Positions 26,057-33,099 of a DNA stretch of 64,000 nucleotides are shown piece by piece. Numbering within the stretch: the stretch's first letter is position 1; each line of letters opens with the position of its first letter. A program made the translations under genes and the position numbers. Origin of the DNA: Candidatus Dojkabacteria bacterium HGW-Dojkabacteria-1 (GTDB lineage Bacteria > Patescibacteriota > Dojkabacteria > SC72); NCBI GenBank assembly GCA_002840365.1, contig PHAO01000001.1:168647-232646 (forward strand). The letters are read 5' to 3'. Under the pieces are notes generated by a model. The model saw only the letters and a list, made by a program, of their open reading frames with translations. It did not search any database and was not told the origin of the DNA.

Positions 26057-26132
26057 CGGGGTGTAGTTCAGATGGCTAGAACGCTTGCATGGGGTGCAAG
26101 AGGTCGCACGTTCAAGTCGTGTCACCCCGACC
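26057..26132 (+). tRNA. tRNA-Pro (anticodon GGG), CCA encoded
   Basis: Acceptor cggggtg/caccccg with C1:G72 (bacterial tRNA-Pro hallmark), anticodon arm cttgc-aUGGGGu-gcaag (U33, G37), T-arm gcacg-ttcaagt-cgtgt, discriminator A + CCA. Confidence 0.8.
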
Positions 26133-26342
26133 AGTTAAGACGAGACCCTCCCGAAACATTGATACATAGGCATTATCAGCGTGATACATGCCATTTATCA
26201 AAATTATCCAGATTCTACTAAATCTGTATAAAGTCCCTTTGTACAAGCATAATCACCGTTCAAGTCCTGTCAGGTCTTTAGCTATATTCCGCTCGTAAAA
26301 ATCGATATCATTTTATTCATATTATTTTTTACTAATATTTAT

Positions 26343-26585
26343 ATGGATAAAATGGATTTAATAGATTCAGATGTAACACTGGATGAGTTATTTGAGTGGT
26401 TGAAGGATGAGATTGAAAAAGGGAATTTTCCACAGTTTCAGGATAAATCAGATGAAGAATTGCTTGAACTTGTTAAGGTTGCAAAGCCATTAATTGAGAT
26501 CGAGCTAAGGTTAGCCAATGCATTTGCATGGGAGCAGGTAAATTCGATTAAGAAAAAGGGTAAGATTCTTCAAAGAAAGGCATGA
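26343..26585 (+). CDS. hypothetical small acidic protein (80 aa), same strand as the OLD-family gene 66 bp downstream
   Basis: ORF only; acidic helical N-terminal part and basic tail (KKKGKILQRKA). Confidence 0.4.
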   Translation: MDKMDLIDSDVTLDELFEWLKDEIEKGNFPQFQDKSDEELLELVKVAKPLIEIELRLANAFAWEQVNSIKKKGKILQRKA

Positions 26586-26651
26586 TCAGTATTATTTTTT
26601 TACTGAAATTGCGAAATGGAATATAATTAACTATACATTGAAGAAAACTAT

Positions 26652-28394
26652 ATGAAGATAAAGAGCGTTACAATTGAGAATTTCCGTTGCTTCGATACCC
26701 CTTTGGTAGTCAACTTTGAGAACTATTCTGGGCTAGTCGGAAAGAATGGAACTGGAAAAACATCTGTATTAGAAGCCATCAACTTAGCTACTTCTCAATA
26801 TTACGTTAGTTCTCGTATAAATGAATCTGATTTTAATAACGAAGAGAATATAAGGATTATAGTAGAATTTGATAAGTGCTTTGTCATGCTCATTCCTGAT
26901 GGTTTTGCTTCCCAATATGTACCTTCAAATAGAATCTATCTAGCAATCTCACGAAGATCAAAGGCCGCTGCCGGTAAGGCTTTAAATGACGGATATACAA
27001 TTAATCATTTTGCAATCCCATATACATATTCAAGTAGCACAGAGCTATCTGATGTATTAGAAGATAGTATGCTAAATGGTCAAGAATCGTTGGATAAGCT
27101 CCCTAATTCAGTACTCCTTAATGGTGACGAAGATGAATACAAGTATAAGATCACCAGGAAGAGTGGTACGGTAAAATACGCAGATTCAAGAAGTCTACAA
27201 CTTTCGAATAACATGATTGGATTCCCAAATGTCTTTTATTTTGATAAAGATCGTGAAGGAGAAACAAGTAAGAAATTCAACAATCTTATGTCTAGGATTT
27301 TAGATGATCTGAATTGGAGATACCTTTCAAAAACAAGCGATGAGACTGAAATACTCCAGTCGGAGGAATCCGAAGGCGAGGCTGTTATGGGAACAGCTAT
27401 TCTAGAGCAACTAATTCTAGATGTATGGGAAGAATATTACAATAAGGTAATTGGTACTGTTGAGAAAGAAAAATCAAAGAGAATTATTTATCCCTTAAAG
27501 AAGAAAATGAAAGACTTCTGGGGTGAGATGTATGAGGATCTAGAACTATCAGTTCTTGATCTTACAAGTCCATTTTCTTCAGGATTCTTCTCTCTAAGGA
27601 AACAGAAGAAATCAAAGCAGATTAAAGTAAACAACTTAGGATCTGGAGAGTCAATGATATTAGCCTATTTCCTCTTGCAAACAATCAGTAAATTATCGAA
27701 AGAGAGGGTAATATATCTTATAGATGAGCCAGAAATGCACTTGCATCCACAGGCGCAGGTTAAGTTATTCGATGAGATACAGAAGTCCAAGAACCAGGTG
27801 ATTTATACAACGCATTCGGATATGTTCGTTGATATTGGGGCTTGGAAATCTATTTTAAGGTTTTCACCAGAAGAGGTCTACCCAACAGAAGAAATTCTGA
27901 ATGACAAGAGCATTGAGGATAAGGCCATTAGTGAGCATCTTGAGGAGATTAAACAGTTCCACCAAGATAAAACAATCTTTGTGAGGGAAAATAATGAAAT
28001 ATTCTTTGCCGATAAGTGTTTGCTAGTTGAAGGTCCTATAGATAAGTATGGAAATGCGATTCTTGCTAAGAAATTATCGAAGGAATTTCAAAACACAACG
28101 ATTGTTAGCTGTACTGGCAAGACAAAAATACTTTATTATGTTCTGCTATGTAAAGCCTTTGGTATCCCTTATTTTGTGATCTATGATCAAGACGAAGAGG
28201 GTAAATATACACTTCTTGAAGATAATTCTGATAATATAGAATCATACACAACATCATTCGAGAAGGTTTTTGAGCAAGGCGAAGAAGCAAGAAGAAACGA
28301 TATTCTTACATATATAATTAATCTTGATAAGGAGAACATTCCAGAGGAAGTTGTGAATATAATTCAAACTATAAGTACTTGGTCAGACGAATAA
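26652..28394 (+). CDS. OLD-family nuclease: single-chain ABC-type ATPase plus C-terminal TOPRIM domain (class-1 OLD / GajA-like)
   Basis: KIKSVTIENFRCF N-terminus; Walker A GKNGTGKTS (26739-26765); ABC-signature-like LGSGES; Walker B/H-loop VIYLIDEPEMHLHP (~27716-27752); TOPRIM Glu LLVEGPID (~28021-28044) and DxD IYDQDEEG (~28181-28204); 580 aa. Confidence 0.8.
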   Translation: MKIKSVTIENFRCFDTPLVVNFENYSGLVGKNGTGKTSVLEAINLATSQYYVSSRINESDFNNEENIRIIVEFDKCFVMLIPDGFASQYVPSNRIYLAISRRSKAAAGKALNDGYTINHFAIPYTYSSSTELSDVLEDSMLNGQESLDKLPNSVLLNGDEDEYKYKITRKSGTVKYADSRSLQLSNNMIGFPNVFYFDKDREGETSKKFNNLMSRILDDLNWRYLSKTSDETEILQSEESEGEAVMGTAILEQLILDVWEEYYNKVIGTVEKEKSKRIIYPLKKKMKDFWGEMYEDLELSVLDLTSPFSSGFFSLRKQKKSKQIKVNNLGSGESMILAYFLLQTISKLSKERVIYLIDEPEMHLHPQAQVKLFDEIQKSKNQVIYTTHSDMFVDIGAWKSILRFSPEEVYPTEEILNDKSIEDKAISEHLEEIKQFHQDKTIFVRENNEIFFADKCLLVEGPIDKYGNAILAKKLSKEFQNTTIVSCTGKTKILYYVLLCKAFGIPYFVIYDQDEEGKYTLLEDNSDNIESYTTSFEKVFEQGEEARRNDILTYIINLDKENIPEEVVNIIQTISTWSDE

Positions 28395-28401
28395 ACTGAT
28401 A

Positions 28402-29556
28402 TTACTTGGGATTAATAATAGTGACTATATTAAGGTTATCCTTACTCATACTGTTTAAATCATTCTCCAATCCTGCAGGGTTACCGATCCTGCCTTCTGG
28501 ATCATAGATAAAACAAATCAAATTTTTACAATCAGGGTGTTTCGAATATCTAGCGATATCAATGATAATCTGTTCTCCAATTTCCTTATCTTCCAAGCCC
28601 TTCCTTGTCTTCTTCACCTCTATAACGGTTTCAATTTCCTTTATCAAGAAATCACTTCGGGATGAGCTTCCTGCGTAGCTTGGGTTCCACTCCTCTTTGC
28701 GAACATCCTCAAATTTTATGTGCAATAACGCATATAATAAATCTTGTACGTCATATTCATCTTCTACCTGAATTGTATCCCGACCGTCATAACGATCCTT
28801 AACTTTTCTAGCAAATCTATGGAAGCCGTTGCACAAATCGAGAACATCCTGTATTTCAGATGTTCTTCCCGTACCCTGCTTAAAATACTTTGACTTGATA
28901 TCAATTTGTTTCAATACGTTACGTGACAAGCGTATTAGCTCCAACATTTTACTAGCTAATAATGTAGTAGAGAGCAGTTCTGAATGGAACTGTATGTGTG
29001 GTGGAACTTTGAATCCTTCAGAAACGGCTCTAGAATCTCTTGATATAGCATTTGAGGGCTGCTGGTATCTGATAAGATCTCTCGTTTGATGGTGTAATTC
29101 CAGATCTTCAATCTTCTTTAGCTCAGCCTGTTGAGTTGAATACTCGTCACTGTCTTTGATAAATGCAAGAGTATTAACAATATCATCTCTAAGTTTCTTA
29201 GCACTTTCAGCAATTTGATTTATCTTGCCACAAAGATCATCTATTTCTTTCAGCTTGTGACTTTCTCCGATCTTACTCTTTACGTCCTCATATGTTTTTT
29301 CGTTCCATCCTGCGGGTATTCCATGATAACCTGCTCCTCCCCATTCAATGTTAAATTTACTTCCAGGAGGTGGTTTCTGAAAATCGCTAAAATATAGGTA
29401 AGCATGGTATCCTAACCAGGAGCCACTCCAAGATTCCTCTAATTTGCTAACGACATCGGCGACATCATCTATCTCCTTAGAATATTTCTTTATATCTGAA
29501 CTATTCTCCTTGTCGAATTTATCTATTTTTTTCTTGAGTTCTTCTAGTTCTTTCAT
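28402..29556 (-). CDS. hypothetical protein: N-terminal alpha-helical domain of unknown family plus C-terminal PD-(D/E)xK nuclease-like domain
   Basis: C-terminal ...EDEYDVQDLLYALLHIKFEDV...SSSRSDFLIKEIETVIEVKK...GEQIIIDIARY fits the E...hhD...ExK...Q..Y pattern of restriction-endonuclease-fold nucleases (motif DNA ~28605-28670). Convergent with the OLD gene (3' ends 8 bp apart); co-directional with the TA pair upstream. Confidence 0.5.
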   Translation of the reverse strand: MKELEELKKKIDKFDKENSSDIKKYSKEIDDVADVVSKLEESWSGSWLGYHAYLYFSDFQKPPPGSKFNIEWGGAGYHGIPAGWNEKTYEDVKSKIGESHKLKEIDDLCGKINQIAESAKKLRDDIVNTLAFIKDSDEYSTQQAELKKIEDLELHHQTRDLIRYQQPSNAISRDSRAVSEGFKVPPHIQFHSELLSTTLLASKMLELIRLSRNVLKQIDIKSKYFKQGTGRTSEIQDVLDLCNGFHRFARKVKDRYDGRDTIQVEDEYDVQDLLYALLHIKFEDVRKEEWNPSYAGSSSRSDFLIKEIETVIEVKKTRKGLEDKEIGEQIIIDIARYSKHPDCKNLICFIYDPEGRIGNPAGLENDLNSMSKDNLNIVTIINPK

Positions 29557-29622
29557 ATGGTAATTATATTAAACCGTAATACATTTGTCGTTTATAAAGT
29601 AATTAGTTGATCTCTTATACTA

Positions 29623-29997
29623 TCAAAGAAATGTTTTGTAGTAGTATTCTAACCTTTCTTTATCTTCATTAGCCTTGTTTCCTTTGTAATATATTTCAAC
29701 CAAAATCACTTTTATATCTTTCTTGATGAAAATATAAATAAGTCTAAGACCTGATTTTGCCCCCTTTCCTTTGAATGATTTTGAAGCGAATTTCTTGACT
29801 TTGCACGAAATAATATCGTCATTGCTGAAGCCCGGTATTGGAAATATTGAATTGTTATCAATGCTGTTGAGATGATATAGACTTATAGCAGCCTTTTTAA
29901 CCACTTCTAAGTCTTCAGGAAGCGTTTTATACTTCTTGCAAAGTTTTTTTAGGTCTTTGTCAAATTCAGATGTTGTTTCAAAGCTAATTTTCCCCAT
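29623..29997 (-). CDS. RelE/YafQ-superfamily type II toxin-like protein
   Basis: 124 aa. FDKDLKKLCKKYKTLPEDLEVVKKAAISL...GLRLIYIFIKKDIKVILVEIYYKG matches the RelE/YafQ/Gp49 layout. Overlaps the upstream HTH-Panacea gene by 14 nt. Confidence 0.55.
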   Translation of the reverse strand: MGKISFETTSEFDKDLKKLCKKYKTLPEDLEVVKKAAISLYHLNSIDNNSIFPIPGFSNDDIISCKVKKFASKSFKGKGAKSGLRLIYIFIKKDIKVILVEIYYKGNKANEDKERLEYYYKTFL

Positions 29998-30766
29998 AAT
30001 TTCTCACTGATGTCTTAGGTGTTCGATAAAATACAGTTTCGTAATCAATGGGTTTCGTGTCTTCGGTAACAATCCAAGGAACATCTTGATGAGAATATTC
30101 GCTTAGCTCACTTGCATTTTTATCTGATAATCTTGCAAGAACTTCATCTATATGACGTAATTCTTGTGCGCTAAGAAGTTTTGATAAATCGGGTTCCCTT
30201 ACAGCTAAATATTTTTTTTGGTCATAGTTAAAGTATTTATTTTTCACTATAACTAACTCTTCTTTTGCAACCATTTCCTCAACAAGCTTTTTAAATTCAA
30301 CCGGTGTTGGTCCATGATGATTTTTTATATATGTTGCTCCTATGAGTTGCTCTTCGTATTTTTCGTAGTAATCAAAATCAATAAAATAAAGTAACTTGTA
30401 TAGTACTGTTTCACCGACATTTGGTTTGGCACCTGCCTTGGTCAGAATATATAAGAAAATTTCACGAAATTTATTGAAATTTTTCTGAGGGATACTAATC
30501 CTTAGATTTTCCTCTTGGTTATCGTTATTGTTCTTCATCTTTTCTATGATATCAATCTTAATCCTATCAACAGGCTTTTGGTTAAGTAGGTCATCGATTG
30601 ACATATTTAACAATTTCGCAAGTTTCTGTAGTTCAGTAAGTGAGAGATCTCTAGTCCCTTGCTCAATATTTATATACGTTGGGCGAGATATCCCTAATTT
30701 CTGGGCAACATAATTTTGGGAGTAATTTAATTTCTCTCTTTGTTTTTGTATATATTTTCCAATCAT
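29984..30766 (-). CDS. XRE-family HTH plus Panacea (DUF4065/SocA-like) domain protein, putative antitoxin
   Basis: N-terminal Cro/C1 HTH (LNYSQNYVAQKLGISRPTYINIEQGTRDLSLTELQKLAKLL). Central VLYKLLYFIDFDYYEKYEEQLIGATYIKNHHGPTPVEF matches the Panacea LxKLLYxxD...GPv core (DNA ~30290-30420). Confidence 0.65.
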   Translation of the reverse strand: MIGKYIQKQREKLNYSQNYVAQKLGISRPTYINIEQGTRDLSLTELQKLAKLLNMSIDDLLNQKPVDRIKIDIIEKMKNNNDNQEENLRISIPQKNFNKFREIFLYILTKAGAKPNVGETVLYKLLYFIDFDYYEKYEEQLIGATYIKNHHGPTPVEFKKLVEEMVAKEELVIVKNKYFNYDQKKYLAVREPDLSKLLSAQELRHIDEVLARLSDKNASELSEYSHQDVPWIVTEDTKPIDYETVFYRTPKTSVRNYGEN

Positions 30767-30791
30767 AGTATTTTGGCAGTTAAATTAAATA

Positions 30792-30932
30792 CTATTTAGT
30801 TCTTTTTTTTCTTTTTTCTCTTTGTGACAACGCACTTCCTGCGACAGATTTTGTTTTTTTTGTGGTTCTCTTATTTCTAAGCAGTGAAGATGCTTTCTTT
30901 GCAACTTTCTTACTGGTTACTTTTCTAGCCAT
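30792..30932 (-). CDS. very small, extremely basic ORF (46 aa: MARKVTSKKVAKKASSLLRNKRTTKKTKSVAGSALSQREKRKKRTK) immediately upstream of the HTH-Panacea gene; speculative
   Basis: Found by hand translation (below the ORF-track size cutoff). A sigma70-like -35/-10 (TTGACA ...15 nt... TATAAT on minus strand, plus coords 30951-30977) lies just upstream. No RBS. Confidence 0.2.
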   Translation of the reverse strand: MARKVTSKKVAKKASSLLRNKRTTKKTKSVAGSALSQREKRKKRTK

Positions 30933-31243
30933 ATCTATGATTCAAATAAAATTATATTTAGATTTTACCGGTGTCAAATATATTTGTCAATACATATGTA
31001 AAGAATGTTGACTTTCATTTATACTTATATGTTTAAATAAGGAAGCTCAAAAAGGAACTTCCACTTATACTCAAACTCTTTAACAAATGAAATAATGCTA
31101 TCAATGAAAGGGAGAATCCGTTCGTACATAGTACGATCACCCCGACCATTTCCATTACTAAGGGTCTAGGAATATATTTCACAATGTTTTGTATCTTTGA
31201 TATTGTAGAACTTGTCTTCTCTTAATTTCAGTACTACCAGAAT

Positions 31244-32184: not shown

Positions 32185-33099
32185 CTACGGGGCTAATAAC
32201 TGGAATGGTGGGGTGAACGAGTCACATCCAACGGGGTCAATAGTGTACCCTTTTCCAGCTAAGTCCTTGGGGACATTTCTCATGGTCTCGAACGACTTGC
32301 CACCGTAGCCATAGGCTTCGGGGCCTGACGGACCAAATTGCCACCAACTAAGGTTCCCGCGAGGGATCCCCGTTGCACTGTAATTTGTACCAGCCCATAC
32401 TAAATATCGGAGAACTTGATTCCCACTCTTAAGTGCATAGCATACCACTTTCTTAATGGGGTCTTGCTCGTTAGGATCTGGCGGCCACCGGTTTTTCAAG
32501 TCAGCAAACACCTGTGTTGCTACATTCGAGCTTCCTGCAACAACGGTATGTGCTTCCTTGTGTTCTGGGCTTACCGGTATATACCCTAGCACTGATGCCC
32601 ATAAGGCCAAGGCGGCACTCAGGTCCATTGGATTATCGTAATATATTGCACCAACAGGTACATTTGCAGTATATACGACATACCCAACGGTTAGGGTTCC
32701 CCAGACAATAAGGGCCAAGACATCGGCTGGACCAGGGGCAGGACTATCCATTACACCAACGGCAGCACCGATGGGCATGACAGCGATTCCTGCTTCTTGC
32801 CAGTTGATGGGCTTGTATAGATAGTACACTTGCAGTCCATCAACGTCTTCTTGCAGTGTTGGGGGAGTTTGAATCCTAACAGGAGTGGGAGTAGTAATAA
32901 CCTTCCCTTCACTTGTAGTTATCGATCCCCCCGCAGGAACAATTGTTGCCTCGGCACTTGCCTGTGCTAGAGGCTGGTTTGAACTATCCGGAATTGCAAC
33001 AGGTTGCGCAACCGGTTGAGTATTCACCCCAGAGGGTGGCGTCGAGCAAGCAGCAAGCATTGCAACGACAAGGACATAAACTACCAGCTTTCTAAACAT
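32185..33099 (-). CDS. lipoprotein of foreign origin (GC ~50% vs ~33% backbone), hypothetical
   Basis: Signal peptide plus lipobox LAACS, a Pro/Thr/Gln-rich linker, then a globular C-terminal domain. Codon usage is strongly GC3-rich, unlike all neighbours. Confidence 0.65.
   Translation of the reverse strand: MFRKLVVYVLVVAMLAACSTPPSGVNTQPVAQPVAIPDSSNQPLAQASAEATIVPAGGSITTSEGKVITTPTPVRIQTPPTLQEDVDGLQVYYLYKPINWQEAGIAVMPIGAAVGVMDSPAPGPADVLALIVWGTLTVGYVVYTANVPVGAIYYDNPMDLSAALALWASVLGYIPVSPEHKEAHTVVAGSSNVATQVFADLKNRWPPDPNEQDPIKKVVCYALKSGNQVLRYLVWAGTNYSATGIPRGNLSWWQFGPSGPEAYGYGGKSFETMRNVPKDLAGKGYTIDPVGCDSFTPPFQLLAP

Follow-up and report, generated by a model that had tools for sequence, protein, structure and literature searches.

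A PF18742 nuclease gene of Candidatus Dojkabacteria carries an unrecognised N-terminal domain shared with unrelated effectors: a candidate single-protein sensor-effector of the abortive-infection type

The gene considered here lies in a 64,000-nt stretch (the window) from Candidatus Dojkabacteria HGW-Dojkabacteria-1, an organism with a genome of ~734 kb and ~33% G+C, and it encodes a 384-aa protein in which an N-terminal domain (N-domain) of ~235 residues precedes a PD-(D/E)xK nuclease domain of the Pfam family PF18742. The gene product is probably a sensor-effector of the abortive-infection (Abi) type that works autonomously as a single protein. Such a reading was adopted because the N-domain is found in front of exchangeable effectors, because its head region is conserved among them, because the gene stands alone, and because a minority of the homologous loci have surroundings of the defence type. 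What the present analysis itself shows is the nuclease fold with its catalytic triad, an N-domain that is both conserved and modular, the lack of any partner gene common to the homologous loci, and a position within a small tRNA-flanked islet alongside other genes of the defence type. The nuclease itself is ordinary; it is the N-domain family that represents a concrete candidate for a new immune sensor.

The initial annotation of this stretch had reported an uninterrupted reading frame of 384 codons, and this proved exact. A search of 5.8 billion proteins yielded 2,560 homologues in bacteria and archaea (best E = 7e-111), including full-length ones with 35–46% identity, the best of which are ~385 aa long and align over 96–100% of the query at 40–46% identity, so the open reading frame (ORF) can be regarded as a real gene. 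No family was obtained for the protein in an NCBIfam scan. The AlphaFold 2 model of the full-length protein reached a predicted local distance difference test score (pLDDT) of 87.9, and its Foldseek comparison with the PDB gave no match below E = 0.39. The deposited NCBI entry for this gene, PKN03110.1 (CVU76_01040), comprises the last 150 residues only, beginning internally where the window encodes Ile235, and is devoid of the N-domain. This truncated 150-aa annotation can now be corrected, even if the protein proves ordinary.

The N-terminus had been described as unrecognised, and it has remained so: residues 1–235 gave no match in Pfam, NCBIfam, PADLOC or PHROGs, and the N-domain profile run against the PDB sequences returned noise only (best E = 0.096), with the nuclease EcbAgaN, considered below, not matched even at E ≤ 10. 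An exhaustive HMMER search with this profile against 1.84 billion cluster representatives (clusters at 50% identity) returned 1,076 proteins at E ≤ 1e-3, including 732 at E ≤ 1e-10; the exhaustive search was needed, as an earlier word-index search with the N-domain had given nine proteins only. The hosts include bacteria of the candidate phyla radiation (CPR), Cyanobacteria, Acidobacteriota, Bacteroidota, Firmicutes, methanogens, Thermoplasmatota and Promethearchaeota. The C-termini were classified by Pfam in the 116 proteins of at least 280 aa among the best 150 of the 1,076 matches. PF18742 was found in 37 of them, the CAP12/Pycsar TIR domain PF10137 in 13 and Hypoth_Ymh (PF09509) in 8, with PNP_UDP_1 (2), TIR_2 (2), TIR (1) and DUF4145 (1) being rarer; Ymh and DUF4145 are HEPN families (PMC3710099). 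Further C-termini comprise a 12-member group, in at least two members of which an Rx4H motif (RAIIDH) is present, and numerous short tails for which one or two transmembrane helices are predicted. When PADLOC models were applied to the N-domain fusions, they matched the effector halves only and never the N-domain.

The exchange of modules is also seen from the side of the nuclease. A PF18742 domain with 50–64% identity to that of the window protein occurs in many phyla in proteins of ~255–275 aa with other N-termini, and among the domains that precede it are a REC domain (locus L068), AbiTii (locus L055) and N-termini of ~110 aa. So, the logic of a variable regulatory domain coupled to a nuclease effector, which had been suggested initially, is borne out from both sides, the N-domain itself standing before TIR, HEPN, PNP and transmembrane effectors. 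Abi proteins are known to combine N-terminal domains with interchangeable HEPN, restriction endonuclease (REase) and TIR effectors (Anantharaman et al. 2013, PMC3710099). The family described here resembles the Abi-type proteins (AbiJ-NTD1-5, AbiTii, DpnII/MboI-NTD, HEPN/Toprim-NTD1) in having one N-terminal domain, interchangeable effectors and solitary genes, and the combination of one regulatory domain, several unrelated effectors and a solitary gene that marks this kind of sensor-effector was indeed found. At the same time, the Pfam models of those Abi-type N-terminal domains gave no match on the 384-aa protein at E ≤ 1, and the N-domain differs from them in its larger size (~235 aa), in its own motif set and in its absence from the 2013 list (PMC3710099). 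As judged from sequence comparison, the N-domain is thus absent both from the 2013 Abi catalogue and from the libraries searched, whereas the nuclease domain is already known.

The N-terminal region had been described initially as helical and without an assignable motif, which holds for one part of it and not for the other. In the model of residues 1–258 (pLDDT 88.6; predicted TM-score (pTM) 0.78), long helices (residues 2–42, 102–133, 186–226 and 229–253) form a four-helix bundle, but residues 42–88 and 150–187 are predicted to build an inserted, mostly non-helical head with short strands. This aromatic-rich head carries the motifs SWSGSW.G.H..LY...F..P, F..EWG, W84 and RDS.A..(Q/E)G...PPH. 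S44 is invariant both in the alignment of 21 N-domain sequences and in that of 50 homologues of the whole protein; Y55 and W84 do not vary in the former and are at least 90% conserved in the latter, in which H187 is invariant. The head motifs are 83–99% conserved overall in the non-nuclease fusions, whichever effector follows: S44 in 92%, S46 in 97%, Y55 and P62 in 98% and W84 in 99% of them for the first motif (residues 42–84, SWSGSWLGYHAYLYFSDFQKPPPGSKFNIEWGGAGYHGIPAGW), and R173 in 89%, D174 in 93%, G181 in 92% and H187 in 86% for the second (residues 173–187, RDSRAVSEGFKVPPH), where A177 falls within 89–93% and P185 within 83–86%.

The C-terminal half was readily assigned. Pfam PF18742 (REase_DpnII-MboI) matched residues 239–384 with 184.1 bits (E = 1.5e-54) over practically the whole profile (positions 4–150 of 150), the gathering score being 27 bits; PADLOC "Aga_Helical-REase" (E = 6.5e-32) and phrog_29450 (E = 2.3e-57) matched the same half. 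All of the nuclease motifs quoted in the initial annotation were found, namely, the acidic helix EDEYDVQDLLYALL at residues 265–278 (EDEYDVQDLL, residues 265–274), D302 within SDFLI, E313 and K315 within IEVKK, and then the Q329...Y337 motif; an acidic helix and a D...ExK motif on the restriction-endonuclease fold are what is expected of PF18742 members. The alignment of 50 homologues shows no variation at D302 and K315 and at least 90% conservation at E313. The sole solved relative by sequence is EcbAgaN (PDB 23wq, E = 4e-4), in which D302/E313/K315 fall on D298/E309/K311. The D298A and E309A/K311A substitutions abolish the Mn2+-dependent, non-specific DNase activity of EcbAgaN (PMC10620215). 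The assignment as a PD-(D/E)xK nuclease is therefore upheld by the PF18742 match and by the alignment with the catalytic residues of EcbAgaN, and the profile searches led to this nuclease family rather than to a non-nuclease one. The designation as a "novel effector", on the contrary, has to be dropped, since PF18742 is the effector domain of the BPAN systems with long-B prokaryotic Argonautes (pAgo) (PMC10620215, PMC13535254) and is listed as an alternative output, in place of PNP, of the Detocs response-regulator effector (bioRxiv 10.1101/2023.01.24.525353, Fig. S8). Moreover, in precomputed annotation, C-terminal fragments of 98–131 aa close to the EcbAgaN nuclease are assigned to PF18742. 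By sequence, the nuclease half belongs to an already known family, with nothing new in the nuclease itself.

A highly conserved loop, PSYAGSSS, precedes the catalytic Asp; P292 is invariant in it, S293, Y294 and G296 are at least 90% conserved, yet nowhere else in the model does pLDDT fall below 50. This loop may become ordered only upon DNA binding or oligomerisation.

The best available mechanistic model for the window protein is EcbAgaN, which is autoinhibited at full length, toxic as the C-terminal domain alone and activated by assembly. Full-length EcbAgaN shows little cytotoxicity, and its activation involves binding of pAgo-guide-target complexes to the N-domain and assembly of the nuclease domains into an octamer (PMC13535254). 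By analogy, the N-domain of the 384-aa protein would hold the PF18742 nuclease inactive in the resting state; an infection cue would be read by the conserved aromatic-rich head; the cue would lift the inhibition, probably via higher-order assembly of the nuclease domains; and the released PF18742 domain would act as a non-specific DNase, resulting in DNA degradation. Autoinhibition and oligomerisation of the 384-aa protein are suggested here by EcbAgaN, and its putative DNase activity and anti-phage role by EcbAgaN together with similar architectures in general. Since the N-domain family spans bacteria and archaea, it may be speculated that the cue is widely shared; candidates would be a small molecule, some feature of nucleic acids, or a virion or packaging protein that is conserved.

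A broader proposal, more tentative than the autonomous sensor-effector reading of the single protein, is that the ~235-residue N-domain defines a hitherto undescribed family of single-protein immune sensors with a wide distribution (1,076 clusters or more at 50% identity), in which the aromatic head possibly reads a cue common to bacterial and archaeal viruses and passes the signal to at least five effector classes, i.e., DNase, TIR, HEPN RNase, PNP nucleosidase and membrane-spanning tails. Should the N-domain prove to sense infection, it would represent a small and transferable input module, connected in bacteria as well as in archaea to DNases, TIRs of the NADase type, RNases, PNPs of the ATP-nucleosidase type and membrane effectors. 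Its trigger, once found, would provide a new sensing principle for prokaryotic immunity, as well as a route to how PF18742 nucleases are switched on without a pAgo or a two-component kinase.

The same effector set can be read in another way. The N-domain might bind a small-molecule signal or a partner protein from a system encoded elsewhere in the genome, like the effectors of CBASS, Pycsar and type III CRISPR, or like a bAgaN awaiting its pAgo. Nuclease, TIR, HEPN, PNP and transmembrane modules are the outputs of signal-driven systems, the conserved aromatic-rich head resembles a ligand pocket, and EcbAgaN is activated via its N-domain by a partner protein. Known signal-driven effectors, however, nearly always share an operon with their signal generator, and a recurrent partner, be it a cyclase, a pAgo, a kinase or another protein, was seen neither next to the genes at the 83 homologous loci compared nor beside the TIR, Ymh and PNP variants. 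These loci (80 from species-representative genomes and 3 metagenomic) were subjected to ORF calling and clustering of all neighbours, and no conserved neighbour gene was revealed; the TIR, Ymh and PNP variants had no evident partner gene adjoining, the PNP contig holding that gene only. The host genome is also small, and the ORFs of the window scanned by Pfam included no pAgo, REC domain, histidine kinase, cyclase or methyltransferase. Dependence on a remote signal or partner is consequently considered unlikely.

Even less probable, by a wide distance, is that the protein is an orphan type II restriction endonuclease of the DpnII/MboI kind or the effector of a bAgaN or Detocs system, as might be supposed from the Pfam name and from the PADLOC Aga_Helical-REase matches. 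No methyltransferase was found in the 5-kb islet that contains the gene, and this, together with an N-domain common to effectors that do not act on DNA, makes a type II restriction enzyme unlikely; a domain shared with TIR, PNP and transmembrane effectors, as the N-domain is, cannot be one for recognition of a DNA sequence. The paper from which the Pfam name stems reports a DpnII/MboI-NTD (~100 aa) in fusion with "a novel REase" (PMC3710099), and the name may refer to this association and not to GATC-specific enzymes. The likeness to bAgaN is closer: EcbAgaN has 390 aa against 384, both proteins consist of a helical N-domain and a C-terminal PF18742 PD-(D/E)xK domain, and the D...EVK motif aligns residue for residue. 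The N-domains, however, have no detectable sequence similarity, the three PADLOC Aga_Helical-REase profiles match only residues 235–381 (that is, the nuclease half) via their own C-terminal parts, and the N-domain of the 384-aa protein is common to many effector types, whereas that of bAgaN has apparently arisen in evolution specifically within systems with long-B pAgo (Nucleic Acids Research (NAR) paper on bAgaN). In place of an adjacent long-B pAgo, the neighbours are an OLD-family gene and a toxin-antitoxin pair; the nearest ORFs of more than 590 aa lie at least 17 kb off (two glycosyltransferases, one without a Pfam match), and neither a recurrent large neighbour nor a pAgo is among the recurrent neighbours at the 83 loci. 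Membership in bAgaN/BPAN was rejected because of the different N-domain and the lack of pAgo. Detocs DtcC, in its REase variant, similarly uses PF18742 as an interchangeable killing output behind a regulatory N-domain, as in the REC + PF18742 protein of L068; no Response_reg match was obtained on the 384-aa protein and no DtcA kinase or DtcB among the scanned ORFs of the window, and this assignment was rejected for want of a REC domain and a kinase. The "Shedu-like" label of the initial annotation is apt as a functional analogy, SduA (DUF4263) likewise being a single protein with a variable N-terminal regulatory domain before PD-(D/E)xK, but not as membership, which was rejected because neither Pfam (DUF4263, PF14082) nor PADLOC (SduA) gave a match on the 384-aa protein.

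The surroundings of the homologues raise the question of mobile elements. The commonest neighbour was a tyrosine integrase (12 of 83 loci), followed by unrelated histidine kinases, and serine recombinases were met as well; short-form PF18742 proteins (~260 aa) were found on 213 plasmids, mostly conjugative, and the gene of the window lies within a tRNA-flanked islet. These facts could fit a non-defence role tied to mobile elements, such as addiction or stabilisation of the islet, competition between elements, or DNA processing in transfer. Defence genes ride such elements too, however, and swapping to TIR, PNP, HEPN and transmembrane modules suits cell killing rather than DNA processing. Moreover, only short forms were present in the plasmid collection searched, and the long form was not found in the phage collection either (a single weak match). 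A role of this kind therefore seems quite improbable. One short-form gene stands beside repE on the E. coli IncF plasmid NZ_CP134363.1 (L089 4686-5477). The plasmid short forms, common on conjugative enterobacterial plasmids, are repeatedly labelled "malate dehydrogenase", apparently in error; these labels could be fixed even if the protein proves ordinary.

Surroundings of the defence type occur in a minority of the loci and are suggestive of the Abi-type reading: full-length homologues are directly adjoined at some loci by AIPR, SIR2-HerA or Shedu SduA, and a ResIII helicase and PLD + SNF2 lie within a few genes of some others. In a metagenome-assembled genome (MAG) of Bacteroidales, for example, a full-length homologue is located directly beside an SduA gene (L016 9258-10427; E = 3.7e-165), and in a Terriglobales MAG another adjoins a SIR2_2 + HerA pair (L013 4213-7769).

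Several points weigh against the interpretation as an autonomous sensor-effector. A PADLOC model was matched in only 1 of 10 further sampled immediate neighbours, and some homologue loci lie amid housekeeping genes, so enrichment in defence islands can be called no better than suggestive. The pTM of the full-length model is only 0.63, which leaves the interdomain arrangement uncertain. Ser, His, Asp and Arg are among the conserved residues of the head, and the N-domain could be an enzyme instead of a sensor. Sensing is put forward here as a proposal for a domain family known from sequences and models alone, and oligomerisation and autoinhibition are borrowed from EcbAgaN, the N-domain of which has no detectable similarity to that of the present protein.

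In the Dojkabacteria genome, the gene belongs to an islet of ~5 kb (positions 26057-31148 of the window; Table 1) bounded by a tRNA-Pro gene, whose 3′-terminal 12-mer TCACCCCGACCA forms the left copy of a direct repeat, and by the right copy of the same 12-mer. The 12-mer has exactly two matches in the window against 0.09 expected, and none of 100 shuffles reached two; the direct-repeat scans were otherwise near chance level. The islet encodes an 80-aa ORF, an OLD-family nuclease, the gene under study, a toxin, an antitoxin and a 46-aa ORF, with no evident integrase ORF. Because the genes are of the defence/addiction type only and an integrase ORF is not evident, the islet resembles an integrative element that has decayed or is mobilised in trans. 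A CPR genome of such small size thus devotes ~5 kb to a defence islet.

Table 1 Features of the PF18742 nuclease gene and of the surrounding islet (positions are those of the window)
Feature	Residues or sequence	Position	Strand	Remarks
tRNA-Pro		26057-26133	+	3′ 12-mer at 26122..26133 is the left repeat copy
OLD-family nuclease (AAA_15 + OLD-like TOPRIM)		26652..28394	+	Best PADLOC match "Old"; convergent
Whole gene	384 aa + stop	28402..29556	-	Putative N-terminal sensor/regulatory domain + PF18742 nuclease; ORF, homologues, AlphaFold 2 model
PD-(D/E)xK nuclease domain	239-384	28405..28842	-	Pfam PF18742 REase_DpnII-MboI
Catalytic D302...E313-V-K315	DFLIKEIETVIEVK	28612..28653	-	Translation; aligned to EcbAgaN D298/E309/K311
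Loop PSYAGSSS	292-299	28660-28683	-	Highly conserved
N-terminal domain	1-232 (~235)	28861..29556	-	Four-helix bundle with inserted head (model)
Head motif 2	173-187	28996..29040	-	Translation and conservation
Head motif 1	42-84	29305..29433	-	Translation and conservation
Promoter-like site	ACGACA-17-TATAAT	29563..29591	-	Ends 7 nt before the nuclease ATG; 10/12 matches
Toxin-antitoxin pair		29623..30766	-	Upstream; Panacea-type
Toxin, RelE/HigB-like	124 aa	29623-29997	-	
Antitoxin, HTH_3 + SocA_Panacea		29984-30766	-	Pfam
Right copy of 12-nt direct repeat		31137..31148	+	Bounds the ~5-kb islet

The gene is co-oriented with the Panacea-type toxin-antitoxin pair and lies directly downstream of it with a gap of 66 bp, as had been noted, and it was proposed initially that the three genes could form one unit. 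The lack of a terminator-like site in the gap and the identical five-gene arrangement in independent assemblies of this organism are in line with a unit of this sort, and partnership with the OLD-family nuclease, which has no UvrD/GajB or AriB partner, might be envisaged in view of the related OLD-family gene that Citrobacter amalonaticus (L080 5415-7235) has upstream of its short-form PF18742 gene. Neither toxin nor antitoxin, however, used as phmmer queries against the neighbours of the 83 loci, gave anything except self-matches, and the OLD-family gene recurs at one locus only, that of Citrobacter. In addition, a promoter-like site directly precedes the nuclease ATG, and it is possibly the gene's own promoter, predicted from the sequence; the evidence from it is weak, since the region contains 27 sites of this sort where 21 would be expected, which is no enrichment. 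The OLD-family gene is convergent, the two stop codons being 7 nt apart, and is therefore not co-transcribed with the nuclease gene. Reportedly, Panacea antitoxins pair one-to-one with a toxin. Linkage between the nuclease and the Panacea-type pair is not conserved, nor is co-transcription with this pair a conserved feature, and the idea of a three-gene unit, or of a unit with OLD, has to be regarded as very unlikely, though not so far-fetched as the orphan restriction enzyme.

Two small features accompany this region. Just outside the islet, a 304-aa ORF (32185-33099, reverse strand) with a signal/lipoprotein-like N-terminus and no Pfam match is located in a 1-kb block of 47.7% G+C and is probably foreign DNA. 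Inside the islet, the lysine-rich 46-aa ORF (30792-30932, reverse strand; MARKVTSKKVAKK...) has the antitoxin gene on one side and the region's best promoter-like site (30990..30962) on the other, and it was also called by gene callers in another assembly (L090 1625-1765).

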